Shown piece by piece: positions 16,300-45,854 of a DNA stretch of 45,854 nt. Location of the stretch: IMG/VR virus record IMGVR_UViG_3300045988_140252; one strand, written 5' to 3'. This DNA comes from a virus. Below the pieces are notes generated by a model that worked only from the letters and a program-made list of their open reading frames with translations, was not told the DNA's origin and made no database searches. The first letter of the stretch is position 1, and each line of letters starts with the position of its first letter. The position numbers and the translations under genes were made by a program.

Positions 16300-16321
16300 C
16301 CTGTTGAGTGTTCACATAATA

Positions 16322-16459: not shown

Positions 16460-16786
16460 ATGAGAAAATTATTTTTATTATGTGTCATGTTGATAACGTT
16501 TTCATCATGTAACACTAATCCGCCGGAAGATATAGGGGATTCTTTCGCTGTAGCTAAAGCTTACGTCAAGTTAAATTTAAATTATCCAGAAGAAGCAAAC
16601 TTTAAATTATCAGGAGTTGAGCATGAATATCTTGGAAATAACGAATGTATTGTAAAAGGTACAGTTATTGCTAAAAATGCTTTTGGAGTGAAATCTAAGT
16701 TAAAGTATAGGGTGAAATTAAGGTACAAAGAAGGAAGAGGAATAGATCCTCGTAATTGGGATGTATTGGAATGCTCTGTTTACTAA
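16460..16786 (+). CDS. Small lipoprotein (moron)
   Basis: 108 aa. Signal peptide with a lipobox: MRKLFLLCVMLITFSSC. Confidence 0.7.
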   Translation: MRKLFLLCVMLITFSSCNTNPPEDIGDSFAVAKAYVKLNLNYPEEANFKLSGVEHEYLGNNECIVKGTVIAKNAFGVKSKLKYRVKLRYKEGRGIDPRNWDVLECSVY

Positions 16787-16797
16787 TCTAATTACGT

Positions 16798-17481: not shown

Positions 17482-17496
17482 GAGAATAATCATTTA

Positions 17497-17533
17497 TGTA
17501 ACGCTCGCCAATTTCGGTGGGCGTTTTTGTTAC
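17497..17533 (+). terminator. Second copy of the TGTAACGCT-hairpin-GCGTTTTTGTTAC module
   Basis: TGTAACGCT (17497-17505), a short CGCC/GGCG hairpin, then a T-run and GTTAC. Confidence 0.45.
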
Positions 17534-17855
17534 AAAGTAACGAATCGTATTGTCGAGAAATTTTCTTTTTCTGATAAACTTTTATTAACGTTTTTTTTTT
17601 TTTGTTCAGATTTTAATGCCGACATTTGCCCATGCCAAAAATACTACTGTTATGCAGTCCGGTGAGTCTCGGTTATTGGCTCGAATAAACAACGGGCTTT
17701 TTTTATGCCCGACAAATGCTTGTTTAATATAAGGTGGTTGCCTTTCCCTAAACTATATAACCCGATCTTCGGACGGTTTGCGGTAGTGTTTTTGGCGAAA
17801 CAGGGAAATGGCTTCCGCCTTTTTCTTTTTTTAATAGACCAAAAACACTATCGTT

Positions 17856-18107
17856 ATGAAAAAAGAATTTCAAACCGGTACAAGCTATGTACCTTCGTTT
17901 CGTACTGGTAGTACGGACGTAAACACGATCCAACATCGTTATTTTCAGGAATTGGAAAAAGATTGTTCCGTAAACTCGGCTTCCGATGCTTATTATTTAT
18001 CTGCTATTGCCTGGTTCTGTCTAACCTTTATCTTTCCGCCGGCTGTTATCGGTGCAGTTATATGTGTGTGTCGTGCCAAGAAAGCGAGGAAAGGAGGCCG
18101 AAAATGA
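17856..18107 (+). CDS. Small protein with a C-terminal transmembrane anchor
   Basis: 83 aa. The hydrophobic segment AIAWFCLTFIFPPAVIGAVICV is followed by a basic tail. It is the first of four overlapping genes. Confidence 0.55.
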   Translation: MKKEFQTGTSYVPSFRTGSTDVNTIQHRYFQELEKDCSVNSASDAYYLSAIAWFCLTFIFPPAVIGAVICVCRAKKARKGGRK

Positions 18108-27592: not shown

Positions 27593-30500
27593 ATGGCAAA
27601 ATTAAAACCTGACTATATCGAATGGGTGTTAACCCTGAACGCCTCCGATGCGCAGAAGGAAATACATAATCTTTCAGAAAAGAACAAGGAGCTCCGGGAC
27701 AGCAATAAGGACCTTAAAAAGAAAATGACCGAACTTATTGCTACCGGTAAAGCTGGCGGTAAACAATGGAAGAATCTTACGGATAGATTAAATTCCAATA
27801 ATAAGGCTATCTCCGAGAATAACAAGAAGATTGCCGAATGTGAGAAACGGCTGGATAAAACCACCATGAGTGCCAACCAGCTGGCAAGGAAGGCAAACGC
27901 CTTGCGGAAAGAGCTTCGCGATACGGTGAAATCCTTGCAGCCGGAAAAATATGCCGCCCTGGAAAAGGAGCTGAAAGAAGTTGAGAAAGCATACGGGCAG
28001 GCCACGAAAAAGGCGGAAGGTTTCGGCGGCTCCCTTCTTTCCCTGAATAAGATAAAAACGGTTCTGGCCGGTGTGTTTGTCACTATCGGCGCAATGATAA
28101 CCGGGCAGATTGTCGGCGGGCTAAGGGATGCGATCAGTACTATTATAGAGTTTGAGAAGAAAAACAGTACTTTGGCCGCTATCCTGGGAACTACGAAAAA
28201 GAGTATTAAAGATTTAACGGATGAAGCGCGCCGGCTGGGTGCTACTACTTCTTATACGGCCGCACAGGTAACGGCACTTCAGATAGAGCTTGCCAAGCTG
28301 GGATTTTTCAAAGAGGATATTAAAGCGATGACGCCTTCCGTGCTGAAATTCGCTAAGGCGGTGGACACGGATCTTGCCTCGGCTGCTACGCTTGCCGGTG
28401 CAACATTGCGTATTTTCAACCTTGATGCGGAAGATACGGAACGGGCACTTTCTACCATGGCAATAGGTACAACGTCTTCGGCCTTGAATTTTGAATACCT
28501 GAATAGTGCAATGTCTACCGTCGGTCCGGTAGCAAATTCTTTCGGATTCACGATCGAGGAAACGATCGCCCTTTTGGGAGCTTTGGCAAACAGCGGTTTC
28601 GATGCTTCATCGGCAGCGACGGCAACACGTAATATTTTGCTTAACCTGGCTGACAGTAGCGGCAAACTCGCGCTTGCTCTTGGCGGTCCGGTTAATAACC
28701 TGGATGATCTGATAAAGGGACTTAAAAAACTGAACAGTGAAGGAATAGACTTGAACAAGGCCCTTGAACTGACCGATAAACGTTCCGTTGCAGCGTTTAA
28801 CACTTTCCTTAATGGTACCGATACCGTGCTGGCACTTTGCGACGCGGTGACAGGTGCAGAAGATGCCTTTAATGCTATGTCCGAAGAAATGGGTGATAAC
28901 GTTCAAGGTGCATTAAACCGGCTAAGTTCAACTATCGAAGGGGTAGTTTTACGTTTCTATGAATCAAAGGGTATTCTCCGGGATTTAATAGACCTTGTTA
29001 CGCTTATGGTGGAAGGTGTGGGAGGTATGATTGACATGTTTAATAAATGGGGTGTTGTCACTTATACCGTTACCGCTTATTTGGTTTCTTACTATGGAGG
29101 ACTGAAAATCGCTACCATGTGGCACGCCCGTTTTAAAACGGCGACCCTTGCTTCGGTCGTTGCAGAGAAAGCGCACGCCGTACAGCTTTATATCAGCCGG
29201 GCGGCTACTCTGACTTATGCGGCAGCCCAGGCACTATTACACAAGAATACTACCAGATGTACCGCTGCACTTCGGTTAATGAGGATCGAACTTTTGAAGA
29301 ATCCATATACGGCCCTGCTCGCGTTACTCGTGGCAGCCGGTGTTGCTATCTACCAGCTTGCAAAGAAGACGGAACAGGCTTCGGCGGCGATGAAGGCCCA
29401 CCAGGAAGTCGTAAAGAAAGTGAATGAAGAATATTCCAACCAGGAAGCAAAAATAAAAACTCTTGTAGCTGCTATCAATGATGAGAACCTTTCCAACTAC
29501 ACCCGTAAACAAAGGCTCGCAGAATTAAAAGAACTGATACCGGATTATAATGCGGAATTGAATGAAGAAGGCAGGCTCATAAACAACAACAAGGAGGCCA
29601 TAGATCAATATTTAGTTTCCTTGGAAAAACAAATCAAGTTGAAAGCTTACCAGGAGGAACTGGAAGAATTGTACAAGAAAAAAAGGAATCTTGAAAGCCA
29701 GGAATCAGAGCAAAGCGACGCTTACTGGGACACCCGCCAGCAAAATACATTGTCAGGATATAACCGGAACAGTCTTACCGCTAAAATAAGCCGTTTATTT
29801 GGTACAGAAAAAGAGGCTAACCAGTTGAAAGCCCTACAGACAACACAGAAGGATTTGGCCGGTATAGAATCAGCAATCGCCCAGATCAATAATGATATCT
29901 TAAAAACAGAGGCGACGGCCACTTCATTAACCGGAACCAATAAAGAAAATATAAATACTGAAACATCCCTTATAAAGAAACTGGAGGCCGAAAAGAAAAA
30001 GGTTCAGGAGCAATGGGCGGAAGACAGCGAAGCGAATATCGCCAAGAAAAACAAAGAAATAGAACGTATCGACGCCGAAATAAAACGTTTAAACGAACTG
30101 GGTAAAGTCAAAAAGAAGGCGGAAGCCGGGGAGTATAAAAATACAGAAACGGACGCTACATTAAAACCTCTGGAGATCGAGCATGAAAAACGTATGTTTT
30201 TAATCAAACAGAACCGGGAGAAAGAAAATAAGACGGAAGCCCAATACATTCTCGAAGGGACGGCGGAAAACCTTCGCTATTACCAGGAACGTATCGACGC
30301 CCTCCAGAAGCTGGAAGCAAAAACACCGGCCCAAAAGAAGAAGTTACTCGATGAAATCCACAAGATCGAAACGGAAGCACAGACGGCCATTTTTACGGAA
30401 ACCGGCAAGCAGGAGGACGCCCGTATAAAACTGGTACAGGAGAAACGGGACGAACGGTTAAAGATTGAAACCGCCTATTACAATGTCCAGAAGGACACCA

Positions 30501-31900
30501 TGGAAAAAGCGGTATTAAACCAAAGTATCACGCAGGAAGCCGCCGACGCCTATATGCTGGAAGTTGAAGCGGAGCACGCCGCAGAACTTCTGGAGATAAA
30601 CCGTACCTACCAGGATGATATTGCCGCTTTGGAAATTACCGGTAAACAAAAGCGTATAGAAACAGCGACAGAAGCAGCGGATGCCGTTCGTGAGTCTGAA
30701 ATGAAGTTATTACGCGACCGGGCAGCCATTGCTCAAAAAGTACGTGAAATAACTTCCGTTCCGGTTGGAATAAATGGTATGCAGGAGATGCACCGGAAGC
30801 AGGTTCAGGATGTAGAAACGACTTATAATGCCATAATTGAGATAGCGAGACAGGCGGGAATCTCTACCGTGAATCTGGAAGAACAAAAGAACCGGGAGAT
30901 AAACCGGCTGAATTATGAATACCAGAGTAGTATTTACCAAATCCAGGCAGAAATCGGGCTTTCCTGGCAACAGCAACACGAACAGGAACTGGCACGCTTA
31001 AAACACTTGCATGATGAAGGATTGATAGATGAAAAGAAATATCAGGTCCTTCGTTTAAAGGAAGGAAAGAAAAATATACTGAAATATTTTCAATATTATT
31101 CCGCCCTTTCTTCTTCCATGGTAAATTCAATACAAGAAGCGGAAATCGCTTCGGTAGAAGCTAAATATGCCGTACTTATACAAGAGGCGGAAAATAACGG
31201 TGAAGATACTGCCGCCCTGGAAGAAGAGAAGGAAAATAAGAAATTGGAGATTCAGAAAAAATACGCTGATCTACAATTTGCGATGAAGTGTTCCCAGATT
31301 ATAGCTGATACGGCAGTTGCTATAATGGAAACCCATGCAAGTCTCGGAGGTTGGACGCCTGCCGCTATTGCAGCGGCCGCGATAATGGGAGTTACCGGTG
31401 CCGCCCAGCTTGCACTTGCAGAAGTTGAACGGGAAAAGGTGAAAAATATGTCTGTAAGTAATACAGCAGGCAGTAAAAAAGTAACCGCCGAACGTGTTGT
31501 TTCCGGTTCTTCCGGTGGTGGGTATTCGGAAGGAGGTTACACCGGCCCCGGCGGACGTTATGAAGTGGCCGGCGTTGTTCATAAGGGGGAATATGTGGTA
31601 CCACAACCGGAAATGAATAATCCTAAAGTAATCGACGCCGTTAGTACTATCGAGGCGATCAGGCGGCAGCGTACCAATGTCAACCCGTTACCACAGAATC
31701 CGGGTGAATATTATGAAGGCGGTTACGTCACTTCTCCTGCAGGGGATTCTTCTTACCGGGAGTTCCTGGAAGCTGCAAAGGAGCTTCGTGCCTCCTGTGA
31801 GGCTATCAAATTGATAAAGGCCTATATCGTTTATCAGGATTTGGAGAAGGCCAAAGAAACTATAGATAATGCCCGCGACACCTTTACACGCGGAAAATAA
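27593..31900 (+). CDS. Tail tape measure protein
   Basis: 1435 aa. TP901-type core (AAILGTTKKSIKDLTDEARRLGATTSYTAAQVTALQIELAKLGF), hydrophobic segments and very long coiled coils. Confidence 0.85.
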   Translation: MAKLKPDYIEWVLTLNASDAQKEIHNLSEKNKELRDSNKDLKKKMTELIATGKAGGKQWKNLTDRLNSNNKAISENNKKIAECEKRLDKTTMSANQLARKANALRKELRDTVKSLQPEKYAALEKELKEVEKAYGQATKKAEGFGGSLLSLNKIKTVLAGVFVTIGAMITGQIVGGLRDAISTIIEFEKKNSTLAAILGTTKKSIKDLTDEARRLGATTSYTAAQVTALQIELAKLGFFKEDIKAMTPSVLKFAKAVDTDLASAATLAGATLRIFNLDAEDTERALSTMAIGTTSSALNFEYLNSAMSTVGPVANSFGFTIEETIALLGALANSGFDASSAATATRNILLNLADSSGKLALALGGPVNNLDDLIKGLKKLNSEGIDLNKALELTDKRSVAAFNTFLNGTDTVLALCDAVTGAEDAFNAMSEEMGDNVQGALNRLSSTIEGVVLRFYESKGILRDLIDLVTLMVEGVGGMIDMFNKWGVVTYTVTAYLVSYYGGLKIATMWHARFKTATLASVVAEKAHAVQLYISRAATLTYAAAQALLHKNTTRCTAALRLMRIELLKNPYTALLALLVAAGVAIYQLAKKTEQASAAMKAHQEVVKKVNEEYSNQEAKIKTLVAAINDENLSNYTRKQRLAELKELIPDYNAELNEEGRLINNNKEAIDQYLVSLEKQIKLKAYQEELEELYKKKRNLESQESEQSDAYWDTRQQNTLSGYNRNSLTAKISRLFGTEKEANQLKALQTTQKDLAGIESAIAQINNDILKTEATATSLTGTNKENINTETSLIKKLEAEKKKVQEQWAEDSEANIAKKNKEIERIDAEIKRLNELGKVKKKAEAGEYKNTETDATLKPLEIEHEKRMFLIKQNREKENKTEAQYILEGTAENLRYYQERIDALQKLEAKTPAQKKKLLDEIHKIETEAQTAIFTETGKQEDARIKLVQEKRDERLKIETAYYNVQKDTMEKAVLNQSITQEAADAYMLEVEAEHAAELLEINRTYQDDIAALEITGKQKRIETATEAADAVRESEMKLLRDRAAIAQKVREITSVPVGINGMQEMHRKQVQDVETTYNAIIEIARQAGISTVNLEEQKNREINRLNYEYQSSIYQIQAEIGLSWQQQHEQELARLKHLHDEGLIDEKKYQVLRLKEGKKNILKYFQYYSALSSSMVNSIQEAEIASVEAKYAVLIQEAENNGEDTAALEEEKENKKLEIQKKYADLQFAMKCSQIIADTAVAIMETHASLGGWTPAAIAAAAIMGVTGAAQLALAEVEREKVKNMSVSNTAGSKKVTAERVVSGSSGGGYSEGGYTGPGGRYEVAGVVHKGEYVVPQPEMNNPKVIDAVSTIEAIRRQRTNVNPLPQNPGEYYEGGYVTSPAGDSSYREFLEAAKELRASCEAIKLIKAYIVYQDLEKAKETIDNARDTFTRGK

Positions 31901-35482: not shown

Positions 35483-38400
35483 ATGGCAACACAGGAGTAT
35501 ATCGATGATCTTATTATAGTCATTGAAACCGCGGAGGACGCGGAAAGCGTTACTAACCAAATGGTGGCGGCGGTTCTTGGCTTCTTGAACGAACACCTGA
35601 AACTGGTTTCCCAGGGTAAGGAAGTCGAGGCGGAGGAAACCGCCCGCATTGCCGCCGATGCAGCATTACAGAAGGCTATAGACGCCGTTTCTTTACGTAT
35701 CGACCGACTTGTCGGTAACAACGCTTCGCAGGCAATCGACAACTTTAACGAGATTCTTAATTTTCTGAACGGGCTTAAAGACAGTGATTCGCTTGCCGCA
35801 TTGCTGGCTGATATTAACGCCCGTATCGGCAGTGAAGACGGTTCGGAGAGTGAAGACGGTTCCCTTTGGGGAAAACTGAAAAGTTTGTCCCAGGATATAA
35901 CCAGTTGTTCCGATGACATAAGCACATTGCAGATAGACCGTGACAAAATGAAACAGGGGTTACAGGAAACGGACGGGCGTCTGTCTTCCACCTTTACCAA
36001 TGTAAACAACCTTTTGAACGCCGGTACCGTTTATAGTGATCTGTCGGGGGTATTTGCAACATTGAAAACGGCGGGAAAGATTAACAATGTACGGAAAAAC
36101 GGTGTAATCCTTTCTTTTCTTACTGCCGACGGCTGGGTGACGAAACAATTTAGAGGTAATCCGGACACGGATTTTGAAAATGTCGAAAAGTGGGAGGATT
36201 TCGGCAGCGGCGGTTCGGCCGGCGGGAATACTTATAACGTAACCGGTAACATACCACTTGCAGAAGGTTTCTATACTCTTGCTTCCGCCATTGCCGCGGT
36301 ACCGGAAAAACAACGCGGCCAGGGACGTGTTATCACCTTTGAAACATCGCTCGGTAAATGGGAGACGTGGCAATTTACCGGAACCGATCCGGCTGTCTGG
36401 GATCAGGAGGCGAGCTGGGAAGAGTTCGGCGGCAAAGGAACGGTAAAGAGTGTAACGGTAAACGGCGAGAAGCAGACGCCGGACGCGGCCGGTAATGTGA
36501 ATGTAAACGTGGATATCCTGGAAGTGGACGAAACTTTGTCCTTAGATTCCACCAATCCGGTAGAAAACAAGGTTGTAACCGCCCGTTTTAACGAGGTGGA
36601 CGCTTCCACGCTGTTCAATGTAAATGCGGAGGTAAGCGAGGATGAAACATCCGTCCGTCTGTCTTTCCAGAATAAAAGCGGTGCGGAAATTACCGCTGTA
36701 GATATCCCGGCCGGTTCCGGTGGAGGTTCCGGCGAAACGGTGGCTACTAAAATTGTATTAAATGCGGCTGTAGATAACACCATAATCAAGGAAGGCGGAA
36801 ACGCCCGTCTTACTTATACGTACGATCACCAGTACACCACGGGGGACGAAAAAGGGGAATCCACCGGGCAAAAGGCAGATATAACCGTTACGATCAGGCG
36901 TGGAACAACTACCATGTATTCCCAAACAGTCAGCGATGTTTCTAAAGGTAGTTACGAACTGGACCTTTCAAGTTACTTGCTTGTGGGAAACACGGATATT
37001 TACGTAGTGGCAACCACTACCGATCCGACTACCGGCAAGAAACAAACCCGACAGGCATTTACATCCGTAAAGGTTGTCAGCCTTTCCCTTACCAGCTCTT
37101 ATAATCTGGCCGGGGCCATAGCCGCTGGCGGTTATACGCTGGCCGATACGATTAATATTCCTTATGCCGTCAACGGTTCCGGAACAAAGGTCGTCACGCT
37201 TTATCTGAACGGCCAGCAACAGAACGCGCACACCATTACAAGATCGGGAACGACAAACGGCAGTTTCAGTTTGTCCCCTTCTTCGCTTGTAACCGGTCGG
37301 AATACCGTTCAAATGGTTGCCGAAATGGAGGCTTCCGCCGATCTTGTGTTAAAATCCGAAAGTATCTACATTGATATCCTGAAATCCGGAGGATCGGCAC
37401 CGTTCATCGGCACGATGATAAGTTTTCCGGACGGTCGTATTTTTACGGAGGATCATCTTGTTCCGCGCCTGGAAGCGGGGCAGTACGAACAGGTAAAATT
37501 TGACTTTGTGGCTTATGATCCCGCCGCGACGCCGGCCAAAGTGGACGTTTACCGGGACGGGGTGAAAACGCAGTCTGTCAGTGTGGCGCGTACTACGCAA
37601 ACATATACCAACCGTTTTACCCAGCAGGGTGAAATCAATATGAAATTTAAGACGGGAGCCACGGAATACCCGTTTTATATCGACGTGACGGAAAGCGGGA
37701 TCGACTTGCAGGAAACTACCGCCGGGCTTGTACTGAAACTTTCAGCAGCCGGGCGGAGTAACAGTGAATCCGATCCGGGAGCCTGGGATTATGGCGACAT
37801 ACATACAACGTTTGCAGGTTTCGACTGGAACAGCAACGGCTGGACGGGTGACGCCCTGAAACTTACGGGAGGCGCGAAGATTGAAATCGGGTACCAGCCG
37901 TTCTCCACAGATGCGACCACTACCGGGGCTACCTATGAAATGGAAATTCTTTGTTCATCGGTAACGGACCGGCAGGGAGTGATACTGGACTGTATGGCCG
38001 GCGATATCGGTTTCCAGATGACAACGGAGCAGGCCCTTATGCGTGTTTCCGGCGGTACGGAAGTAAGTACAAAGTTTGCAAGTGATATGAACCTGAAAAT
38101 AGCCTTTATTGTCGGGTCCAAGGCTGGCAAACGGTTGCTGGAACTTTATGTAAACGGAATCCGTTGCGGGGCTGTGCAGTATGGGTCTACCGAAGGACTA
38201 CTGCAGGCGGAACCGGTAAACATCCGTTTGTTCAGTGATACGGCGGATGTGGAGATCAGGAATTTCCGTATTTATAACCGTGCGCTTACGGATGATGAAG
38301 AATTAAATAATTACATGGTAGACCGTACTACGTCGGACGAAATGGTCCTGTTATTTGAAAAAAACGATGTTACGGGGGACAACGGTACGGATATCGACAT

Positions 38401-41400
38401 AGACAAGTTACGCGCCCAGGGAAAGGCGGTTATGCGAATTGTCGGCGATGTGAACCTTGTCAACGCCACCAATAACAAGAAATTCGAGGTACCGGTCGAT
38501 ATCTATTTTTATAGCCCGTACGGTAAGGAGTATGATTTTGTAGCAAGGAATATCGGTCTAAGAATACAGGGTACATCATCCACCACTTATCCGCGTAAGA
38601 ATTACCGTCTTTATTTCTTGCGCCTGGAAAAATACGGTACCACGCTGGAAGTTAACGGCGTGGATGTGCCGTCTCTTGAATACAGTTTCAAACCGGGAGC
38701 ACGGCCGATCAGTATATTCTGTTTGAAAGCGGACTTTTCCGATTCTTCCGGTACACATAATACCGGTGCGGTGCGTATTGTGAACGACGTTTGGAAGAAG
38801 TGCAGGTGGCTGACACCGCCGCAGGCTGCATATAAGGGGGAATATGACGTACGTATAGGCGTAGACGGTTTCCCTATGGACCTGTTTTATGACAACGACG
38901 GCACCGGTGCGAATACTTATCTGGGAAAATACAATTTCAATAATGAGAAGTCGGAAAGTGCGATTATTTACGGTTTTGAAGGAATTGAAGGATTCAACGA
39001 CGAAGCGGCCCTGAACGGGCAGCGTAACAAATGTATCTGCCTGGAGTTCTTGAATAACTCCGAGGCCCTTTGCTTGTTCGGGACTACCGATATGTCTTCT
39101 TTTGATGATGCGCTGGAATTTCGTTTCAAGGCAGATACTACCTGGGCGGATGCACACGAGGACGACAAGGCGGCAGTTACAAGGCTTTGGAACTGGATCG
39201 ATTCATGTAAGGATGATCCCGCCAAGTTCCTGGCGGAATATAACCAGTATTTCGGTAATGACAGCCCGTTTGCATGGTATCTGATTACCGATTATTTTAT
39301 GGCCGTGGATAACCGGGCAAAAAACATGATGCTGGCGACTTGGGATTCTCTGATCTGGTATTTCCTTCCTTACGATATGGACACATTGTTCGGTGTGCGT
39401 AATGATTCGGTATTGAAATACGAATATACCATTACCCACGAAAGTTTTGACGATAGTATCGGTAGTTATGCTTTTGCCGGTCATGATTCCGTTTTATGGG
39501 AACTGGTACGGTCTTGTCCGGACAAATTGCGGGAAGTGGCGGAAACCTTGCGTAGTAATATGAGCCTTGAATATGTCCTGCAAGTATTTAACGAGGAACA
39601 AATGGGTAACTGGTGCGAGCGGATTTATAACAAGGATTCGGAATATAAATATATCCTTCCGCTTACCGAGGGGGTGACAACCAGCAGCGGAACCAGTTAT
39701 TATAATTATCTGTATGCCTTGCAGGGAAGCCGTTATGCGCACCGTACTTATACCATTCAGAACCGTTTCGCCCTTTTGGATAGTCAGTATGTAGCCGGTA
39801 CTTACCGTCGTGACAGCTTTGCGGCTTATTTCGGGTACAAGTTCGGCAGCGATAACCGGAAAATTCGGATTACGGCCTCCGAACGGTACTATTACGGGTA
39901 CGGGTACACGTCCGGAACACCGCACCAAAGCGCGGTACTTGCAGAAACGACCGGTAGTGTGGTGGAACTGACAATGGACACGGATTTAATAGTAAACGAT
40001 CCGCAATATTTCTACGGTGCAAGCCGTATTCGCGGGCTTGATCTGACGGATGTAAGCCACGCCATTGTCGGCACGTTGAACCTGAACAACTGTACGGCCT
40101 TGCGTGAACTGAATGTTAGCTGTGAGGCCGGACAGATGACACTTAACGCCCTTCTGGTGGGTAATTGCCGTAACCTTCGAAAACTCGACATTTCCGGGCT
40201 TAAATCCTCTTCCTTTACCGGTATGGACCTTTCAAGCAATACCAAACTTGAAACCTTTCTGGCCGGTGATACATCCCTTACCGGTGTGACATTCGCCGGC
40301 GGTGCGCCTCTGGCCGTTTGCGTCCTTCCCGGAACTTTACAGACGCTCGAACTCCGATACCTGAGCAAACTAACCAATGCAGGGCTGCAGCTGGAAGGTA
40401 CGGCAAATATCACGCGCCTTGTGATTGATAACTGTAGCCTGATCGACTGGAACACGTTGTTACAGCAATGCAGTGCGACCAGCTATCTACGAATTACCGG
40501 TATAGATATGGACGGGAACGGTAATTTGCTTCGCAGGCTTATGACAATGGGCGGCGTTGATGAAGACGGGGGAAACGTGCAGACGTGCCGCCTGGTAGGT
40601 ACGTACCGGCTCACCCAGTCCATGTCGGATGAAGAGTACGCCGCCACTTGTGCACATTTCCCGGAACTGAATATCATTCAGCCGCAGTTTGTCGGCATAA
40701 AAATAGATCAGACGGTAGGAGACGGGGAAAAGATTACGAATCTGGATAACTCTACCGGATATGACTATAATACTGAATTTACCCCGTCTTCCCATATATT
40801 GGAAGTGTTGTCGAAAAGACGTTGTATTCTGGCTAAAAAGACGGCGGAGGGTGAAATGACCTGTTATCCGCTTCATGATGAGAACCGGAATAAATACGGG
40901 GATAGTGACAGCGTGGAGAACGCCACGGATGCAGTATTAACCGGATCGGAAGGTGAAGTTTACGTATATGAGCCTCATTACTGGTACAAGGGAGTAACGG
41001 ACGTGCTGAATCAGTGTCTTTACGGTTTTATTTCAAGCAATGAGGATGCGCCGGCAGCGGCAGGGTACACCAGTGTAAAACTTACCCGCGAAGAGCTGGA
41101 GGTAACGGAAGGGATCGGGATTCGTAAGAATACGGATTACACGACCCTTGAAGAGGCGAAGAATGAATACGAATCCGGATCGTTCGCCCTGGTGGACGTG
41201 CGGGATTACAAGCAGGTCCGTTTCCCCGGTCTGGCTTCCACTCTTTACGGGGCTGCATTTATAGATGATACGGGCAAAATAGTAAGTCGGGTAAGCGTTT
41301 CAAACGCGAACGGTTTTATTAATGGTATGTACCTGTTTTGTGCTGTTCCCGCAGGGGCTACTTTCCTGGCCTTTACTTTCCTTAATTCGGCGGCCTTCGA

Positions 41401-42271
41401 TTTCGTTTTACTCACAACGTCGGAAAGTGTGGAAGCGATCGAGCCGGACTGGGTAGAGCATACGGAATGCCTGGGCGGTGCTTATGAAGCTTACTTGATT
41501 GATGATGTATTGCGTTCTGTCAGTGGTGTTTCAAGTGTAGGAACCATTTCACAGAGCCAGGCAATCAAATACGCCCAGAACAGGGGCAAAGGTTTCCAGC
41601 TGTTCGACTGGGAGATGCACAAGGATGTGGGTAATCTGCATTTCTTTAAATACGGTAATACCGATTCGCAGGGAGTTTGCGGATATGGAACAAGTAATTA
41701 CCAAAAAGTGACGGGCCTTACAAATGCACTGGGGATGCGTGATACGGTTTCTTATTATAAGGAAAAAGGCGGTTCCAATCCACAGGCGGAAGGTGCTTAC
41801 CGGGACGGTGTAAATTATCAGTCCGTCAATGTACTGGGATATGAAAATTTCCAGGGAAATAAGGCGGAATGGTTGCAGTATGTCACGGTAAACAAGACGG
41901 CAGCGGACGGAAGGTGGTTTATTACCATGCCGGACGGAACGGAACGCGTTGTACAGGGAATTACTGTTTATAATGCGGATATTTATCCTACCCACATGGT
42001 TTGGGGCCGGTATATGGATTTGATTGCAGCCAAAGAAGGCGGTTCCACTTCTTCACATTGGTTCGACAGGTTCTATGTGGGTACCGGGCTTTCTCGTGTG
42101 GTGTATCGGTCGTACAACTACGCGTGCGCGTTGGGCGGTGTTTCGTATGCGGCCGCGAATAACGATTCATCGAGCTCGGGTGCGTACATCGGCGTTCGGC
42201 TTGCCTTCAGGGGCATAATACGCTGGGCGGGCAGCGTCGCGGCCTTTAAAGCCATAAATCAGGCTGATTAA
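35483..42271 (+). CDS. Giant tail fibre / receptor-binding protein; DGR target (LamG-like, CotH-like, LRR and C-type-lectin-fold VR domains)
   Basis: 2262 aa. N-terminal coiled coil. LamG-type signature LELYVNGIRCG...FRIYNRALTDDEEL. CotH-like motifs GLRIQGTSSTTYPRKNYRLYF and WYFLPYDMDTLFG. Leucine-rich repeats LNLNNCTALRELNVS...CRNLRKLDISG. The C-terminal domain contains the VR. Confidence 0.8.
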   Translation: MATQEYIDDLIIVIETAEDAESVTNQMVAAVLGFLNEHLKLVSQGKEVEAEETARIAADAALQKAIDAVSLRIDRLVGNNASQAIDNFNEILNFLNGLKDSDSLAALLADINARIGSEDGSESEDGSLWGKLKSLSQDITSCSDDISTLQIDRDKMKQGLQETDGRLSSTFTNVNNLLNAGTVYSDLSGVFATLKTAGKINNVRKNGVILSFLTADGWVTKQFRGNPDTDFENVEKWEDFGSGGSAGGNTYNVTGNIPLAEGFYTLASAIAAVPEKQRGQGRVITFETSLGKWETWQFTGTDPAVWDQEASWEEFGGKGTVKSVTVNGEKQTPDAAGNVNVNVDILEVDETLSLDSTNPVENKVVTARFNEVDASTLFNVNAEVSEDETSVRLSFQNKSGAEITAVDIPAGSGGGSGETVATKIVLNAAVDNTIIKEGGNARLTYTYDHQYTTGDEKGESTGQKADITVTIRRGTTTMYSQTVSDVSKGSYELDLSSYLLVGNTDIYVVATTTDPTTGKKQTRQAFTSVKVVSLSLTSSYNLAGAIAAGGYTLADTINIPYAVNGSGTKVVTLYLNGQQQNAHTITRSGTTNGSFSLSPSSLVTGRNTVQMVAEMEASADLVLKSESIYIDILKSGGSAPFIGTMISFPDGRIFTEDHLVPRLEAGQYEQVKFDFVAYDPAATPAKVDVYRDGVKTQSVSVARTTQTYTNRFTQQGEINMKFKTGATEYPFYIDVTESGIDLQETTAGLVLKLSAAGRSNSESDPGAWDYGDIHTTFAGFDWNSNGWTGDALKLTGGAKIEIGYQPFSTDATTTGATYEMEILCSSVTDRQGVILDCMAGDIGFQMTTEQALMRVSGGTEVSTKFASDMNLKIAFIVGSKAGKRLLELYVNGIRCGAVQYGSTEGLLQAEPVNIRLFSDTADVEIRNFRIYNRALTDDEELNNYMVDRTTSDEMVLLFEKNDVTGDNGTDIDIDKLRAQGKAVMRIVGDVNLVNATNNKKFEVPVDIYFYSPYGKEYDFVARNIGLRIQGTSSTTYPRKNYRLYFLRLEKYGTTLEVNGVDVPSLEYSFKPGARPISIFCLKADFSDSSGTHNTGAVRIVNDVWKKCRWLTPPQAAYKGEYDVRIGVDGFPMDLFYDNDGTGANTYLGKYNFNNEKSESAIIYGFEGIEGFNDEAALNGQRNKCICLEFLNNSEALCLFGTTDMSSFDDALEFRFKADTTWADAHEDDKAAVTRLWNWIDSCKDDPAKFLAEYNQYFGNDSPFAWYLITDYFMAVDNRAKNMMLATWDSLIWYFLPYDMDTLFGVRNDSVLKYEYTITHESFDDSIGSYAFAGHDSVLWELVRSCPDKLREVAETLRSNMSLEYVLQVFNEEQMGNWCERIYNKDSEYKYILPLTEGVTTSSGTSYYNYLYALQGSRYAHRTYTIQNRFALLDSQYVAGTYRRDSFAAYFGYKFGSDNRKIRITASERYYYGYGYTSGTPHQSAVLAETTGSVVELTMDTDLIVNDPQYFYGASRIRGLDLTDVSHAIVGTLNLNNCTALRELNVSCEAGQMTLNALLVGNCRNLRKLDISGLKSSSFTGMDLSSNTKLETFLAGDTSLTGVTFAGGAPLAVCVLPGTLQTLELRYLSKLTNAGLQLEGTANITRLVIDNCSLIDWNTLLQQCSATSYLRITGIDMDGNGNLLRRLMTMGGVDEDGGNVQTCRLVGTYRLTQSMSDEEYAATCAHFPELNIIQPQFVGIKIDQTVGDGEKITNLDNSTGYDYNTEFTPSSHILEVLSKRRCILAKKTAEGEMTCYPLHDENRNKYGDSDSVENATDAVLTGSEGEVYVYEPHYWYKGVTDVLNQCLYGFISSNEDAPAAAGYTSVKLTREELEVTEGIGIRKNTDYTTLEEAKNEYESGSFALVDVRDYKQVRFPGLASTLYGAAFIDDTGKIVSRVSVSNANGFINGMYLFCAVPAGATFLAFTFLNSAAFDFVLLTTSESVEAIEPDWVEHTECLGGAYEAYLIDDVLRSVSGVSSVGTISQSQAIKYAQNRGKGFQLFDWEMHKDVGNLHFFKYGNTDSQGVCGYGTSNYQKVTGLTNALGMRDTVSYYKEKGGSNPQAEGAYRDGVNYQSVNVLGYENFQGNKAEWLQYVTVNKTAADGRWFITMPDGTERVVQGITVYNADIYPTHMVWGRYMDLIAAKEGGSTSSHWFDRFYVGTGLSRVVYRSYNYACALGGVSYAAANNDSSSSGAYIGVRLAFRGIIRWAGSVAAFKAINQAD
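42093..42210 (+). repeat. DGR variable repeat (VR)
   Basis: 118 bp inside the last ~60 codons of the fibre ORF. It matches the TR at 102 of 118 positions, and all 16 differences fall at TR adenines. Confidence 0.9.
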
Positions 42272-42281
42272 GATAAAAAAA

Positions 42282-42298
42282 ACAACGTAAAACGTTGT
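42282..42298 (+). other. Hairpin 11 nt after the target-gene stop (DGR target-recognition hairpin and/or terminator candidate)
   Basis: ACAACGT-AAA-ACGTTGT forms a 7-bp perfect stem. It is preceded by an A8 run and has no U-tract after it. Confidence 0.4.
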
Positions 42299-42376
42299 GC
42301 GGGTAGCGCAGGCGTCCGGAAGTAAGACGGGTGCCGGTGCTTCCTGAAAGTACAAAGGCGGATTTCCTCATATACA

Positions 42377-42494
42377 CTCGTGTGGTGTATCGGTCGAACA
42401 ACAACGCGAACGCGTTAGGCGGTGTTTCGTATGCGAACGCGAATAACGATTCATCGAACACGAATGCGAACATCGGCGTTCGGCTTGCAAACAA
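42377..42494 (+). repeat. DGR template repeat (TR)
   Basis: Non-coding copy of the VR, rich in AAC/AAT when read in the VR frame (SNNNANALGGVSYANANNDSSNTNANIGVRLANN then a stop). About 32 adenines by hand count. Confidence 0.9.
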
Positions 42495-42642
42495 TTAGGA
42501 TAAAGAAAAAGCGCATAAGCCTTAAAAATTGGCGTACAACAGTGGGGACGTGTCCCCGGCGTGGAGCCAAGAGGAATGAGCCTCGCCAACAGCAGCCGTT
42601 TACGGCTGGAAAGGGGAAAAATAAAGCGCAGGGCAATGGGGT
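42377..42642 (+). ncRNA. Putative DGR template RNA (TR plus a 148-nt spacer with two hairpins)
   Basis: The TR is followed by hairpins GGGGA-CGTG-TCCCC (42544-42557) and CAGCCG-TTTA-CGGCTG (42593-42608) before the RT start. No ORF is credible here. Confidence 0.55.
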
Positions 42643-43998
42643 TTGGTAGGAAGTTTTTTCGAAGAAGCCCGGCCCGGGGAATTGAAGGCTGATTTAATTA
42701 TCATGTGGAGAGAAGATAATATTATAGAAGAGATTGTCGAGGACGCCAATATAGAGGACGCCATAAAAACGGTATTGCGCAAAAGAAGACGAAAGCGCAG
42801 CTTTGCCGGGCGTCGAATACTGGCGGATGTCCCGAAGGCGGTAGAGAGGATCAGGCAGCGGATCAGGAGCGGGCGGTTCAAGCTCGGAGGATATCGGGAA
42901 ATGACCGTAGACGACGGGCCGAAAGTAAGGATCGTACAATCGGTTTCCCTGGAGGACAGGATCGTTCTTAACGCTGTTATGAATGTGGTGGACCGGCATT
43001 TGAAAGTACGTTTTATCCGGACTACTTCCGCATCCATTAAAAACAGGGGAACGCATGACCTTTTACAGTATATCGTTAAAGATATAAAGGATGATCCCGA
43101 AGGAACCCTGTTCGGGTACCAGTTCGATATAACGAAATTCTATGAGAGCGTAGACCAGGACGTTTTGCTGGATGCAGTGAAAAGGATGTTCAAGGATAAA
43201 ATATTGATCGGAATCCTGGAAGAGTGCATCCGCATGATGCCTAAAGGCGTAAGTATCGGGCTAAGATCATCACAGGGGCTTTGTAATTTGCTTCTATCCA
43301 TTTACCTGGATCACCGGTTAAAGGATCAGGAGGCGGTAGCATATTATTACCGGTATTGTGACGATGGTCTGGTGCTTTCCGGTAGTAAGAAATACCTTTG
43401 GAAGGTTAGGGATATCATTCATGAACAGACCCGGAAAGCCCGCCTGGAGATTAAAAGCAATGATACCGTTTTCCCGATCACCGAAGGTATCGACTTTCTG
43501 GGATATGTAACCCGCCCGGATCATGTACGGTTAAGGAAGCGTAACAAACAGAAGTTCGCCCGCAAGATGCACAAGATTAAAAGCAAGAAACGCAGGCAGG
43601 AGTTAACCGCCTCATTTTACGGGCTTACAAAACATGCCGATTGCAAGAACTTATTTTATAAACTAACAGGAAAGAAAATGAAAAAATTAAAAGATCTGGG
43701 CTACAAGTACAAGCCTAAAGACGGACGGAAACGATTTACCGGGGCAAGGATCAAGTCGCCCGAACTGATGAACAAGGATGTGATCGTACTTGATTATGAA
43801 AAGGACGTTCCGACGAAAAACGGAAACCGGACTGTTATAAAGCTGGAACTCGACGGCAAGGAGAGAAAGTATTTTACCAGCCTGGAGGAAACCCTTTTCA
43901 TTTGTGAATCAGCGGCAAGAGACGGAGAACTGCCTTTTGAAGCACATTGCGAAGGTGAAGTAAGTGAAAAAGGATTGATAATTATACATTTTACTTGA
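42643..43998 (+). CDS. DGR-type reverse transcriptase with a C-terminal extension
   Basis: 451 aa. RT motifs LEDRIVLNAV and SIKNRGTHD; the DGR-typical IGLRSSQGLCNLL; catalytic YRYCDDGLVL. About 115 aa lie beyond the thumb region. The alternative start is the ATG at 42703. Confidence 0.85.
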   Translation: MVGSFFEEARPGELKADLIIMWREDNIIEEIVEDANIEDAIKTVLRKRRRKRSFAGRRILADVPKAVERIRQRIRSGRFKLGGYREMTVDDGPKVRIVQSVSLEDRIVLNAVMNVVDRHLKVRFIRTTSASIKNRGTHDLLQYIVKDIKDDPEGTLFGYQFDITKFYESVDQDVLLDAVKRMFKDKILIGILEECIRMMPKGVSIGLRSSQGLCNLLLSIYLDHRLKDQEAVAYYYRYCDDGLVLSGSKKYLWKVRDIIHEQTRKARLEIKSNDTVFPITEGIDFLGYVTRPDHVRLRKRNKQKFARKMHKIKSKKRRQELTASFYGLTKHADCKNLFYKLTGKKMKKLKDLGYKYKPKDGRKRFTGARIKSPELMNKDVIVLDYEKDVPTKNGNRTVIKLELDGKERKYFTSLEETLFICESAARDGELPFEAHCEGEVSEKGLIIIHFT

Positions 43999-43999
43999 A

Positions 44000-44494
44000 A
44001 TGATACGGATTTATGCAGACAGCAAGGCGGAACCGGTAAGATGCACCAACCGCCGCCGGGGAATCTGGCGTATTACGTGGGATTACCAGGAAACAGAGAC
44101 ACCCGAAGGAGTGCAACGTAGTTACATGGAAGAGACGTTCGATCATCTACCCGCACTGGCAGAAATCAAGGCGGTTATTAATGAATGGTATAACCGGAAG
44201 ATAACCGACACGATCGAAAGCGGGTACGTATGGAACGGCCTGAAAGTCTGGCTTTCCATGGAGAACCAGATGAATTATAAGACGGCGTACGATCTTGCCT
44301 TGCAGACAGGCGGGGAAAACCTTCCTGTTACTTTCAAGCTCGGGGAAGAAGACAACCCGACGTTTTACGAGTTTGCAAGTATGCAGCAACTACAAGAGTT
44401 TTACACCGGTGCCGTGAAACATATACAGGAGACACAAAAGGAAGGCTGGGAACTTAAAAAGGCGATAGACTGGAGTGTTTATACGTTGGAGTAG
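44000..44494 (+). CDS. Hypothetical protein, DUF4376-like (phage fibre-associated family) by pattern
   Basis: 164 aa. The pattern YVWNGLKVWLSMENQMNYKTAYDLAL...PVTFKLGEEDNPTFYEFASMQQLQEFYTGAVKHIQ resembles DUF4376-type proteins. It is not helical-bundle Avd-like. Confidence 0.35.
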   Translation: MIRIYADSKAEPVRCTNRRRGIWRITWDYQETETPEGVQRSYMEETFDHLPALAEIKAVINEWYNRKITDTIESGYVWNGLKVWLSMENQMNYKTAYDLALQTGGENLPVTFKLGEEDNPTFYEFASMQQLQEFYTGAVKHIQETQKEGWELKKAIDWSVYTLE

Positions 44495-44534: not shown

Positions 44535-45701
44535 TTAAAAAAGTCCTTCAAAATGTTTTGTCTCTTCATGTACTGGCAACGCTTCTCCTTTTAGATATTT
44601 ATTTGTGGTAGAAATATCCGAATGTCTTGCTTGATCGCGTGCAATAACAATCCCGGCTGAATTTGCCAAATCGCGAATACCGGTATCTTTTAGGGAATAA
44701 AACTGGTAGGAGTCAGGGAATTTAAGTAACGTACGTACTTTATTGAAATAAGTCCTGTAAGTGCGTGGTGTCGATTTCTCTTTTGAGGGTTTGAAATCTT
44801 TCCCGAATAAGTAACAATCATTGCTATAATTGAATATTTTAAGTTCGAGCATAGATTTTATTAAGATATCGTTTAATCCTACCATACCGTCTTTGCGGTT
44901 TTTAGATATACTTGAAGGGATAAATACTTTTTGATCCTTAATATAGATATCGGATAATTGAATATTTGACAGCTCATCTGGACGAATAAGGGTATAATAT
45001 GCAAACTGGCAAAGTAGGAGAAAGTACGGATTATTTTTTTCTAAATATGTTCTAAGCTTCTGTAGATCATTGGCGGACAATGCGTCCCGTTTCTTTTTGT
45101 CTTCCGACAATGATTTGATATTCTCTACGGGGTTTTTGTCTATATACTGTTTTTCTAATAACCAGCTGCCAAAAGATGATAACCAGGTTCGATAATTATT
45201 CCTTGTGCGAGCTGATGAATCACGATCAATAAGAATATAATCCAAGAAATCACTTGCATAAGTCTTATCAAACTGATAAATATATATTATAGGATTGAAA
45301 CGCTTTTTGTTGTATTCTGATAACACCCTAATTCTTTTTTTATAGTCTGCAAAGGTACTTTCTTTAAACACTTTGGACTTATGGAATTTAATTAGATATT
45401 TATTGTATAATTCCACAACATCATCGAACAATGTATATTGGCGGGAATTTGAAGTATCTGCCCATGGATTCCAACCAGATAAGAGTTGCCGACTTATATT
45501 TGCAATTAATTCCGTAGCCCTCTTTTTCCGGACACTAATTTTATCTATGCTATCCAGCATATATTTTTTTCGTTTCATTTTTTGTTCCAAAGGATCATAA
45601 GCTTTGAAATCAATATACCAATTTTTCCCGGTGTGAAGTTTGGGCAAAGTGTAGGGTATTATACTATTTAATGAGGCACCCCGTCTTTTAGTTGAACACA
45701 T
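44535..45701 (-). CDS. int: Tyrosine-type site-specific integrase
   Basis: 388 aa. The C-terminal catalytic region holds RDQARHSDISTTNKYL (H-x-x-R ... Y). The N-terminal region is arm-binding/SAM-like. It lies next to the att repeat. Confidence 0.9.
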   Translation of the reverse strand: MCSTKRRGASLNSIIPYTLPKLHTGKNWYIDFKAYDPLEQKMKRKKYMLDSIDKISVRKKRATELIANISRQLLSGWNPWADTSNSRQYTLFDDVVELYNKYLIKFHKSKVFKESTFADYKKRIRVLSEYNKKRFNPIIYIYQFDKTYASDFLDYILIDRDSSARTRNNYRTWLSSFGSWLLEKQYIDKNPVENIKSLSEDKKKRDALSANDLQKLRTYLEKNNPYFLLLCQFAYYTLIRPDELSNIQLSDIYIKDQKVFIPSSISKNRKDGMVGLNDILIKSMLELKIFNYSNDCYLFGKDFKPSKEKSTPRTYRTYFNKVRTLLKFPDSYQFYSLKDTGIRDLANSAGIVIARDQARHSDISTTNKYLKGEALPVHEETKHFEGLF

Positions 45702-45829: not shown

Positions 45830-45854
45830 TGCACGGGAGGAGAGGCTCGAACTC
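45830..45854 (-). repeat. att core copy (right); probably the 3' end of an intact minus-strand tRNA gene that continues beyond the window
   Basis: Identical to 1-25. On the minus strand the tRNA body would lie past position 45854 and is not visible. Confidence 0.65.

Follow-up and report, generated by a model that had tools for sequence, protein, structure and literature searches.

The right end of a viral DNA of 45,854 nt from a Bacteroides prophage (IMG/VR record IMGVR_UViG_3300045988_140252, the whole of which was analysed and is referred to here as the window) carries what is with high probability an intact diversity-generating retroelement (DGR) of an Avd-less lineage of Bacteroidales phages, with the same cassette as phages BT-TP2 and hankyphage. 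The DGR is not new: the same element was published in 2025 in BT-TP2, and its class, to which hankyphage belongs, has been described since 2018.

Results

The variable and template repeats

A computed ungapped alignment of positions 42093-42210, containing the variable repeat (VR), with positions 42377-42494, containing the template repeat (TR), gave 102 identities over 118 positions. This is the same figure as that obtained by hand in an earlier, sequence-only reading of this DNA. All 16 mismatches correspond to adenines in the TR, at exactly the positions listed in that reading, and the VR has T, G or C at these sites; no mismatch was detected at a non-adenine position of the TR. The hypergeometric probability of finding 16 out of 16 mismatches on adenines, given 32 adenines in 118 positions, is 2.6e-11. 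The translation of the VR given earlier was also reproduced, as was that of the TR, except for its first residue. An independent repeat finder recovered the pair as 42093-42204 and 42377-42488 (112 nt, 89%). Moreover, when the adenines of the TR were treated as degenerate, the resulting pattern matched the window only at the VR and the TR, with zero matches expected by chance.

Variation among related phages and the 3' boundary of the VR

We then compared the repeats of 35 related phages, defined by an RT identity of at least 96%. Each of the 35 VRs is different, and the variation is limited to 27 TR-adenine positions: 566 VR/TR mismatches are located on TR adenines and 8 elsewhere, and a mean of 46% of the 27 sites is substituted. 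Pairwise, the VRs differ by 53.5% at A sites versus 1.4% at non-A sites, the corresponding values being 2.8% for the 300-nt upstream flank and a mean of 1.1% for the TR. None of the 35 VRs contains a stop codon. Thus, the comparison of VRs among relatives that had been suggested in the sequence-only reading revealed a hypervariable rather than an invariant VR, and the RT is intact. The presence of a different VR in every relative, while the flanks differ by only 2.8%, suggests that homing would be frequent on the time-scale separating these phages. In addition, non-adenine variants of the TR, present at 20 sites in 14 loci, are all mirrored in the cognate VR (20/20), which shows that variants of the TR are copied into VRs. 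We also observed that relatives contain a second target, a 183-aa protein of the non-structural region, which is diversified with the same TR.

Positions 42205-42207 and 42210, where the VR reads CTTCAG and the TR AAACAA, are identical across all 35 related VRs and are therefore fixed flank and not mutagenised sites; the second VR of the relatives likewise has CTT at the positions equivalent to 42205-42207. Hence, the functional VR ends at 42204, and the element has 27 mutable adenines in 112 nt instead of the 32 in 118 nt counted previously. The functional VR (42093-42204) and the non-coding TR (42377-42488), both on the plus strand, differ by 12 substitutions attributable to the DGR, all of which are on adenines (12/12, 27 adenines in 112 positions; hypergeometric p = 3.9e-9). 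The VR 3' boundary (42191-42210, plus strand) is composed of a 14-nt G+C-rich sequence, GGCGTTCGGCTTGC, which is common to the VR and the TR and resembles an IMH, followed by the invariant VR-specific hexamer. By analogy with the IMH/IMH* of BPP-1, this G+C-rich stretch may act as the homing boundary. BPP-1 has a DNA hairpin downstream of its VR; no clear BPP-1-style hairpin was found downstream of the VR in the window (z = -1.35).

The RT-3 spacer RNA

The region downstream of the TR contains an RT-3 RNA (Rfam RF03068; 42527-42676, plus strand), which matches the family model over its full length (1-148) with a score of 126.9 bits, the gathering score being 40.5. It lies next to the RT gene. 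In the original description by Weinberg et al. (2017), RT-10 alone was tied to a DGR, and RT-3 had no assignment. RT-3 occupies the equivalent position in 17 of 17 distant loci, where the TR of the adenine-only TR/VR pairs always ends 10-38 nt upstream of it, and compensatory changes were found in 21 of its 42 predicted base pairs. RT-3 is the spacer RNA of this DGR lineage.

The reverse transcriptase

The RT gene (42703-43998, plus strand) encodes a protein of 431 aa that matches Pfam RVT_1 and PHROG 1423, and of which the core (aa 1-319) is Brt-like. The start codon is most likely ATG 42703, and not TTG 42643, because the full-length RT-3 RNA covers 42527-42676, because the annotation of BT-TP2 uses the equivalent ATG, and because RT homologues in related loci align from residue 1 (MWREDNII). 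Consequently, the RT would begin 215 nt past the functional end of the TR, instead of 148 nt after the TR as had been proposed. The SQG segment and the YCDD motif noted in the sequence-only reading are both present, as IGLRSSQGL, which contains the DGR signature [I/V/L]GxxxSQ, and as YYYRYCDD. The equivalents of Brt residues R74 and I181 are conserved, and the best solved relative of the RT is BPP-1 Brt (8ub7_A, E = 3e-22), compared with E = 4e-9 for a group II RT.

The alignment with Brt ends at residue 319 of the RT. The C-terminal extension that follows (aa 320-431; 43660-43995, plus strand; pI 9.0; PHROG 19665) is absent from Brt. All homologues of about 433 aa have retained it, and its predicted structure is rich in beta strands and OB-like. 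An AF2 model of the extension reached a pLDDT of 78, the other four models having values of 53-62. Foldseek searches against BFVD yielded ten matches at E <= 1e-3, most of them to RT-domain or uncharacterised proteins and one to a DUF669 protein; phage ssDNA-binding proteins had E values slightly over 1e-3, and a fold search of the PDB gave weak OB-fold matches only, the best being PrgE (E = 0.011). The predicted OB-like nature of this domain is thus based on a medium-confidence model and weak to moderate fold matches.

The target protein

The VR is located at the 3' end of a large gene (35483-42271, plus strand) encoding a multi-domain virion protein of 2262 aa, which is the ortholog of gp44 of BT-TP2. 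The gene is at the tail-fibre position, two to three genes downstream of the tape-measure gene (27593-31900). The protein shows weak Pfam matches to CotH, Laminin_G_3 and LRR_EndoS, and its PHROG matches (14959 and 24896) are all of "unknown function". Its C-terminal domain, which bears the VR (41453-42271, plus strand), is modelled with a C-type-lectin fold: the AF2 model of the last 299 aa (pLDDT 82.6, pTM 0.81) matched TaqVP (5vf4, E = 3e-9) and Mtd (1yu0-1yu4, E about 3e-3 to 7e-3) in Foldseek searches of the PDB, with weaker matches to C-type lectins and TvpA. No match to this domain was found at the sequence level. Considering the gene order after the tape measure, the Mtd/TaqVP-like tip and the nearby Tfa-like DUF4376 gene, we infer that the target is a tail fibre.

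The gene downstream of the RT

The gene following the RT (44000-44494, plus strand) encodes a protein of 164 aa (pI 4.9) that matches Pfam DUF4376 (36.1 bits; cut-off 25). It is 46% identical to an ORF noted as "Avd" in the record of hankyphage jmh43_hp, and no similarity was found between it and BPP-1 Avd. The ORF in the hankyphage record is therefore a DUF4376 protein, and both resemble the tail-fibre chaperone Tfa. A search with the bAvd model (PF22296), which detected BPP-1 Avd at 123 bits as a control, gave no match among the ORFs of at least 50 aa (non-overlapping set) of the window.

Relationship to known phages

A tyrosine integrase gene (44535-45701, minus strand; Pfam Phage_integrase, PHROG 1) follows the cassette, and a 25-nt direct repeat, the putative att core, is present at the two ends of the window (1-25 and 45830-45854), with the DGR close to the right-hand terminus, as part of a temperate phage. 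By eye, the 25-nt repeat resembles the 3' half of a minus-strand tRNA; ARAGORN detected no complete tRNA in the window.

BT-TP2 (PQ571279.1) is 95-97% identical to most of the window and has the same gene order (target gp44, TR, RT gp45, DUF4376 gp46, integrase); a DGR with gp44 as target was predicted by myDGR in this phage (Gut Microbes 2025, PMC12694917). The two TRs are identical (118/118), whereas the VRs differ at 14 sites, all of which are TR adenines. The phages also differ in that the immunity region is more divergent, and in that BT-TP2 contains a second VR, at about 122-239 near the start of the linear record, in an unannotated ORF; the window lacks that segment of about 558 nt. Hankyphage (p00, BK010646.1) has the same layout: a target of some 2,200 aa whose C terminus carries the VR, then a TR, an RT and a DUF4376 ORF of 161 aa. 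The RTs of hankyphage and of the window are 53% identical along the full 431 aa, C-terminal extension included, and RT-3 is also present in hankyphage-like loci. However, hankyphage is a Mu-like transposable phage, and not an integrase/att temperate phage like the one studied here; its target C-terminal domain is about 36% identical to that of the window, and a 64-aa ORF is annotated between its VR and TR. The cassette of TR, RT-3, RT with C-terminal extension and DUF4376 gene is conserved in 45 viral loci (RT identity 52-55%) and in 24 of 24 testable Bacteroidales genome loci.

The window also differs from BPP-1: BPP-1 has Avd, an RT-10 spacer RNA, a YMDD motif in Brt and a target of 381 aa, whereas the window has RT-3, YCDD, a target of 2262 aa and about 110 extra aa in its RT. 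Matched with published descriptions, the DGR corresponds to lineage 3a of Wu et al. (2018), with architecture E1 (CH1), a CLec3 VR and target category f1, and the target to "domain group 3" of Macadangdang et al. (2024). Lineage 3a is likewise restricted to Bacteroides, lacks avd and combines a target of about 2,000 aa containing CotH and Laminin_G_3 with a small acidic accessory protein. This CH1 was described as an acidic ORF of 160-169 aa with a pI of about 4.7 and "no identifiable motifs"; the DUF4376 gene fits CH1 by size, charge and context, although it does match a Pfam family.

Discussion

By analogy with BPP-1 and hankyphage, the RT would bind an RNA that comprises the TR and the neighbouring RT-3, within which cDNA synthesis may be primed, and would copy the TR faithfully except opposite adenines, where any nucleotide may enter. 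The cDNA would then replace the VR at the 3' end of the target gene, with the 3' limit of homing set at GGCGTTCGGCTTGC. We propose that the divergence of the VR and TR past this sequence protects the TR from being overwritten.

The results support the DGR interpretation given in the sequence-only reading, and every refuting condition named there gave an outcome in favour of a DGR. The RT is of the Brt class, as opposed to the RTs of group II introns, retrons or defence systems. It is extremely improbable that the RT derives from another retroelement (group II intron, retron, Abi/DRT) and that the repeats are an ordinary diverged duplication. The RT does show weak similarity to the NCBIfam models of group II, Drt3a and retron RTs, as expected of any RT, but its scores (64.6 versus 300, 40.8 versus 235 and 58 versus 200) are about 4-6 fold or more under the curated cut-offs. 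Rfam detected no group II intron or retron RNA families within 42000-44000 at E <= 1, and the RT, whose closest relative is Brt, contains IGxxxSQ instead of QGxxxSP; together with the adenine-only pattern, which recurs in the 35 relatives, these tests refute such an origin. It is also unlikely that the cassette is a fossil, in which the VR records ancestral mutagenic homing by an element that is now silent or inactive. The window contains no sign of present activity, reading its sequence revealed no recognisable promoter for the TR RNA, and the activity of the hankyphage DGR, measured in culture by sequencing, is strain-variable and repressed in lysogeny (PLoS Biol 2025, PMC12135933). Against this, the reading frame of the RT is complete and its catalytic motifs are undamaged, RT-3 matches its family model from end to end, an isolated phage, BT-TP2, has exactly the same TR, and the 35 close relatives each have their own VR despite nearly identical flanks.

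Accepting an intact DGR, the roles of its target and of the DUF4376 protein can be read in more than one way. The target might act as an adhesin or an enzyme-bearing protein displayed on the virion (CotH-kinase-like, LamG, LRR), whose tip binds mucus, glycans or other ligands without setting host range, a reading we regard as possible but the less favoured one. Its motifs are atypical of a simple fibre, its PHROGs are uninformative as to function, mucus adherence was suggested for the hankyphage homologue (Benler 2018, PMC6199706), and the TR of relatives also serves the 183-aa non-structural-region protein. However, the gene is at the position of a tail fibre or RBP, a Tfa-like gene follows the cassette, the tip is similar to Mtd, for which receptor binding is proven, the record of the hankyphage homologue notes "Tail fibre protein", and BT-TP2-like prophages were found in 8 host species (PMC12694917). 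As to the DUF4376 protein, we hypothesize that it is a fibre chaperone or a lineage-specific accessory. That it instead performs the function of Avd in cDNA synthesis or homing is possible but less likely, even though its gene directly follows that of the RT in all 45 distant viral loci and in all 24 genome loci that could be tested, also in a type of locus with no target C-domain inside 4 kb, and Wu et al. (2018) found CH1 only in DGRs without avd, HRDC and MSL. The protein is acidic, whereas Avd is basic (pI 9.55) and dissimilar in sequence; DUF4376, its sole family match, is a conserved domain of Mu-U/Tfa-type fibre chaperones, and the linkage may simply reflect a fibre-chaperone pair into which TR and RT were inserted.

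Avd is essential in BPP-1. As none was found in the window, this lineage must work differently at that step, and we hypothesize that the nucleic-acid-holding role of Avd is assumed by RT-3 together with the C-terminal domain of the RT, which is basic and OB-like. With 25 of the 27 mutable adenines at codon positions 1-2, ten AAY codons and no reachable stop, the number of peptide variants possible at the ligand-binding face of the C-type lectin could reach about 1e15. By analogy with BPP-1 and hankyphage, it is plausible that the DGR re-tunes the receptor specificity of the phage, and so may affect its host or ligand range.

Adenine-confined differences between the repeats

In an ungapped comparison, the variable repeat (VR, 42093-42210) and template repeat (TR, 42377-42494) of the diversity-generating retroelement (DGR) are identical at 102 of 118 positions, as the sequence-only reading had stated, and the coordinates that it gave for the 16 mismatches are exact, with an A in the TR at every one. 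Independently, a repeat finder returned the pair 42093-42204/42377-42488 (112 nt, 89% identity). When the TR adenines were made degenerate, the resulting pattern matched these two sites alone (none is expected by chance in the window) and thus revealed no second VR in the window. The differences between TR and VR, by whose confinement to adenines a DGR is recognized, fall on adenines at 16 of 16 positions, and at 12 of 12 inside the functional 112 nt; the corresponding chance probabilities are 2.6e-11 and 3.9e-9.

Four of the 16 mismatches belong to a fixed flank and are not mutagenised. Positions 42205-42210, which read CTTCAG in the VR and AAACAA in the TR, are constant in all 35 VRs that we compared (see below), while they vary at every one of the 27 TR-adenine positions between 42105 and 42188, and we therefore place the functional end of the VR at 42204. 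Judged from the same 35 VRs, the number of mutable adenines is 27 and not the 32 proposed earlier. The earlier translation of the VR was reproduced, as was that of the TR except for its first residue. Immediately before the fixed flank, VR and TR have in common a G+C-rich stretch of 14 nt, GGCGTTCGGCTTGC, which is followed by CTTCAG in the VR and by AAACAA in the TR, an arrangement that may correspond to the 3' boundary element of DGRs, known as IMH in the VR and IMH* in the TR. In phage BPP-1, a DNA hairpin/cruciform follows the VR. An equivalent structure after the window VR was rejected: the sole stem across the boundary has 5 bp, with a fold z-score of -1.35, and on reading the sequences we saw no conservation of it in the second VR of relatives.

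The target gene and its variable tip

The target ORF (35483-42271, 2262 aa) lies two or three genes downstream of the tape-measure gene, and its product gives matches to CotH, Laminin_G_3 and LRR, all of them weak. The last 299 residues showed no sequence-level match to any family in PDB, Pfam or NCBIfam. An AlphaFold2 model of this part, built from 82 homologues, reached a pLDDT of 82.6, and with the model of the VR domain Foldseek returned TaqVP (E=3e-9), then Mtd of BPP-1, and then C-type lectins. The VR ends 67 nt upstream of the target stop codon, so that it lies at the 3' end of the gene within a predicted C-type-lectin fold. Mutable adenines are biased in codon position, 25 of 27 being at positions 1-2, and ten codons are AAY; no stop codon can be reached by mutating TR adenines. 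The potential diversity is 4^27 = 1.8e16 DNA variants, or ~1e15 peptide variants.

Variation of the VR among related phages

A scan of viral contigs for the reverse transcriptase (RT) yielded 35 loci with an RT identity of at least 96% and 45 loci with 52-55%. We compared the VRs of the window, of Bacteroides phage BT-TP2 (PQ571279.1) and of 33 of the closely related loci. Invariance of the VR across relatives, which had been named as evidence against a DGR, was not seen: all 35 VRs are distinct. Compared with their own TRs, they have 566 mismatches that fall on adenines and 8 that fall on other bases. The substituted share of the 27 sites averages 46% (range 30-65%), which fits the substitution density of ~50% reported for Bacteroides DGRs and BPP-1 (Macadangdang et al. 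2024). Changes from A to G (224) and A to T (173) are more numerous than those from A to C (29). Pairwise differences amount to 53.5% at the A sites, whereas the remaining VR sites show 1.4%, the TR 1.1% and the upstream 300 nt 2.8%; none of the 35 VRs contains a stop codon. In addition, variants at non-adenine positions of the TR are mirrored in the cognate VR in 20 of 20 site instances (14 loci), which is a signature of TR-to-VR copying. The comparison shows that homing is frequent at the level of the phage lineage; this is an observation on the lineage and not on the individual prophage of the window.

One related TR (locus L005, 3675-3792) differs at five positions, all of them adenines (A22G, A27T, A60T, A81G, A94G). 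These changes could reflect mutagenesis of the TR, VR-to-TR conversion or a chimeric assembly.

Some close relatives (L010, L007, L029, L033 and the isolated phage BT-TP2, L082) have a second VR that is served by the same TR. In L010, the second target is a 183-aa ORF (7901-8452; VR2 at 8247-8364) beside HTH regulator genes. The second VR of BT-TP2 is located at approximately 122-239 of its record in an unannotated ORF, which seems to be split by the ends of the linear record. The window does not contain this second-target segment of ~558 nt (junction at 866/877) and has one target.

The reverse transcriptase

The RT had been proposed to start at TTG 42643, 148 nt after the TR. The ORF can indeed be opened there, but a full-length RT-3 RNA (Rfam RF03068; see below) covers 42527-42676. 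Because of the position of this RNA, the annotated RT start of BT-TP2, which is the ATG equivalent to 42703, and the alignments with the homologues of related loci, which begin at residue 1 (MWREDNII), we place the start at ATG 42703, 215 nt after the functional end of the TR. The RT is thus encoded by 42703-43998 (431 aa). It matches RVT_1 and PHROG 1423, and its sequence cluster has 7,266 members.

The SQG segment and the catalytic YCDD noted in the sequence-only reading were found, and the RT has the DGR signature [I/V/L]GxxxSQ, present as IGLRSSQ; the gene adjoins the TR, as is typical of DGR-clade RTs, and lies on the same strand. The enzyme also carries the equivalents of Brt residues R74 and I181, which favour adenine mutagenesis in BPP-1. 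Of the structures in PDB, chain 8ub7_A is its closest relative (E=3e-22); tblastn of the aligned stretch identified this chain as Brt of Bordetella phage BPP-1. A group II RT followed at E=4e-9. The possibility that the enzyme is instead of group II intron, retron or Abi type, which the earlier reading had set against its own proposal, did not hold, since all scores are several-fold under the curated cut-offs: 64.6 bits for group II TIGR04416 (cut-off 300), 40.8 for retron St85 (235), 58.2 for Drt3a (200) and 31.3 for Drt2 (390). Rfam gave no group II intron or retron RNA family at E<=1 in 42000-44000.

After the thumb, the RT has a basic extension (~110 aa, pI 9.0) that has no counterpart in Brt and is kept in every homologue compared. 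Its model is a beta-rich domain (pLDDT 78). At the sequence level it showed no match in PDB, Pfam or NCBIfam. Searched against BFVD at E<=1e-3, the extension matched mostly RT-domain and uncharacterised proteins and one DUF669 protein, with phage ssDNA-binding proteins just above 1e-3, and against PDB it showed a weak OB-fold likeness. The extension is probably a nucleic-acid-binding domain.

An RT-3 RNA between TR and RT

The RNA at 42527-42676 scores 126.9 bits with the RT-3 model, against a gathering threshold of 40.5, and covers all 148 model positions. RT-3 is located directly 5' of the RT in each of the 17 distant loci tested, and where a VR is within reach, RT-3 is preceded at 10-38 nt by the end of a TR whose mismatches are confined to adenines. 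The RT-3 helices show compensatory changes in the aligned sample. Pairing of the TR 3' end with the sequence after RT-3 (RNAalifold) was rejected as too weak, since it comprises 4 bp and a single compensatory change. Weinberg et al. (2017) tied RT-10 alone to a DGR, as the spacer between TR and brt of BPP-1, and left RT-3 without an assignment. In the literature searched we found no paper that assigns RT-3 to a system. Our results allow RT-3 to be interpreted as the DGR spacer RNA of a lineage that lacks Avd. When genomes were scanned with a pattern of the RT-3 core (L083-L112), all 30 hits fell in Bacteroidales (Bacteroides, Phocaeicola, Alistipes, Parabacteroides, Mediterranea, Paraprevotella, Xylanibacter and Muribaculaceae), a host range that is a lower bound because the pattern was designed from this clade.

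Inspection by eye of the region before the TR (42272-42376) revealed no Bacteroides-type promoter TAnnTTTG, and the TR RNA may therefore come by read-through from the tail operon. Just past the target stop, 42275-42298 contains an A8 run followed by a hairpin (CAACGT-AAA-ACGTTG). Read on the minus strand, this sequence is intrinsic-terminator-like; the plus strand lacks a U tract, and read-through into the TR is therefore possible.

Absence of Avd from the scanned ORFs and a DUF4376 ORF after the RT

We searched a greedy set of non-overlapping window ORFs of at least 50 aa, as concatenates, for bAvd and 23S_rRNA_IVP. Neither family was matched, and hence no Avd was found in the scanned set; as a positive control, BPP-1 Avd scored 123 bits with the same Pfam library. 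Although BPP-1 requires Avd, the protein is not universal, being encoded by ~68% of DGRs, and its absence is consistent with architectures A and E of Wu et al. (2018).

Immediately 3' of the RT lies an ORF (44000-44494, 164 aa) encoding an acidic protein (pI 4.91) that matches DUF4376 over aa 54-157 (36.1 bits, cut-off 25). Such an ORF follows the RT in all 45 distant viral loci and in all 24 genome hits, of the 30 in total, that had enough sequence. The linkage holds even in loci without the target C-domain within 4 kb. Four hankyphage-like loci (L073, at 3646-5742, L075, L077 and L080) consist of a short TR, RT-3, RT and DUF4376; in the 4 kb to either side no target C-domain could be recognised, and their target must be remote or different.

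The window protein is 46% identical (E=4e-53) to a protein noted as 'Avd' in hankyphage jmh43_hp (L113, 2545-3030; PV107405.1, 40044-40529). That protein is likewise acidic (pI 5.0), has a DUF4376 match and is not similar to BPP-1 Avd (pI 9.55, bAvd family), and the label is therefore without sequence support. Two papers describe DUF4376 as a conserved domain of Mu-U/Tfa-type tail-fibre chaperones. The window protein had no match among PDB sequences. It is Tfa-like, and it may serve as a fibre chaperone, as a retrohoming accessory or in both roles.

The remainder of the prophage

The window begins and ends with a 25-nt direct repeat, TGCACGGGAGGAGAGGCTCGAACTC (1-25 and 45830-45854). By eye, the minus strand of this repeat is similar to the 3' half (T-arm and acceptor) of a tRNA, and for this reason it is probably the att core; ARAGORN detected no complete tRNA in the window. 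A tyrosine integrase adjoins the right end. Both features fit an integrated prophage that is complete and was cut at its att repeats. Near-identical proteins are found in hosts such as Phocaeicola vulgatus, B. thetaiotaomicron and B. caccae. Most other window ORFs had no Pfam match; the exceptions include an S49 peptidase (head maturation protease, 7134-8000), an N6/N4 DNA methylase (12318-12992) and a phage lysozyme (24814-25248). An island of low GC content (15800-18000; 0.35-0.39, against ~0.46 elsewhere) contains small ORFs, two of which (16460-16786 and 16798-17481) have lipoprotein- or signal-peptide-like N-termini and may be moron or lysogenic-conversion genes.

Discussion

The DGR of the window was identified correctly, and it is an element already known from earlier work. 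The window is 95-97% identical to BT-TP2, for which a DGR with target gp44 was predicted by myDGR (PMC12694917), and the window target is the orthologue of gp44. Wu et al. (2018) described the class, in which CLec3 VRs and category f1 targets of ~2,000 aa with CotH and LamG occur without avd. They also described CH1, a gene product of 160-169 aa and pI ~4.7 that is confined to the avd-less Bacteroides DGRs of architecture E1, lineage 3a. The window has the features of this lineage and architecture, and its DUF4376 ORF resembles CH1 in size and charge, the comparison being with the published description of CH1. The same proteins form 'domain group 3' of Macadangdang et al. (2024). Hankyphage has the same cassette, with an RT that is 53% identical over its full length, and the activity of its DGR has been measured (PMC12135933). 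The element has a textbook signature, one that specialists would expect to meet in a Bacteroides prophage.

How such a cassette might work can be outlined by analogy with BPP-1. TR and RT-3 would together form the DGR RNA, and the RT, with its fused C-terminal domain, would bind this RNA and make adenine-mutagenised cDNA. The G+C-rich 14-mer, together with the divergence of CTTCAG (VR) from AAACAA (TR), may set the 3' limit of homing. We tentatively combine these points in a joint reading, which we regard as possible but somewhat doubtful as a whole: in BT-TP2-like phages, hankyphage and their relatives, retrohoming would be independent of Avd and would use a ribonucleoprotein unlike the Avd-dependent one. 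The 148-nt RT-3 RNA just after the TR would be its priming and scaffold element, and the basic OB-like domain fused to the C-terminus of the RT would stand in for Avd. The ORF labelled 'Avd' or 'CH1' would then not be Avd and would encode a Tfa-type chaperone that folds or caps the hypervariable lectin tip.

As a DGR, the window adds one more VR allele for a phage species whose DGR has been published, and it confirms the continued diversification of one protein tip in these very abundant gut prophages. The mechanistic points, namely RT-3, the DUF4376 ORF, the RT extension and the second target, reach the whole lineage, hankyphage included. They provide handles on how a DGR works without Avd, a question that Wu et al. 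(2018) flagged as open.
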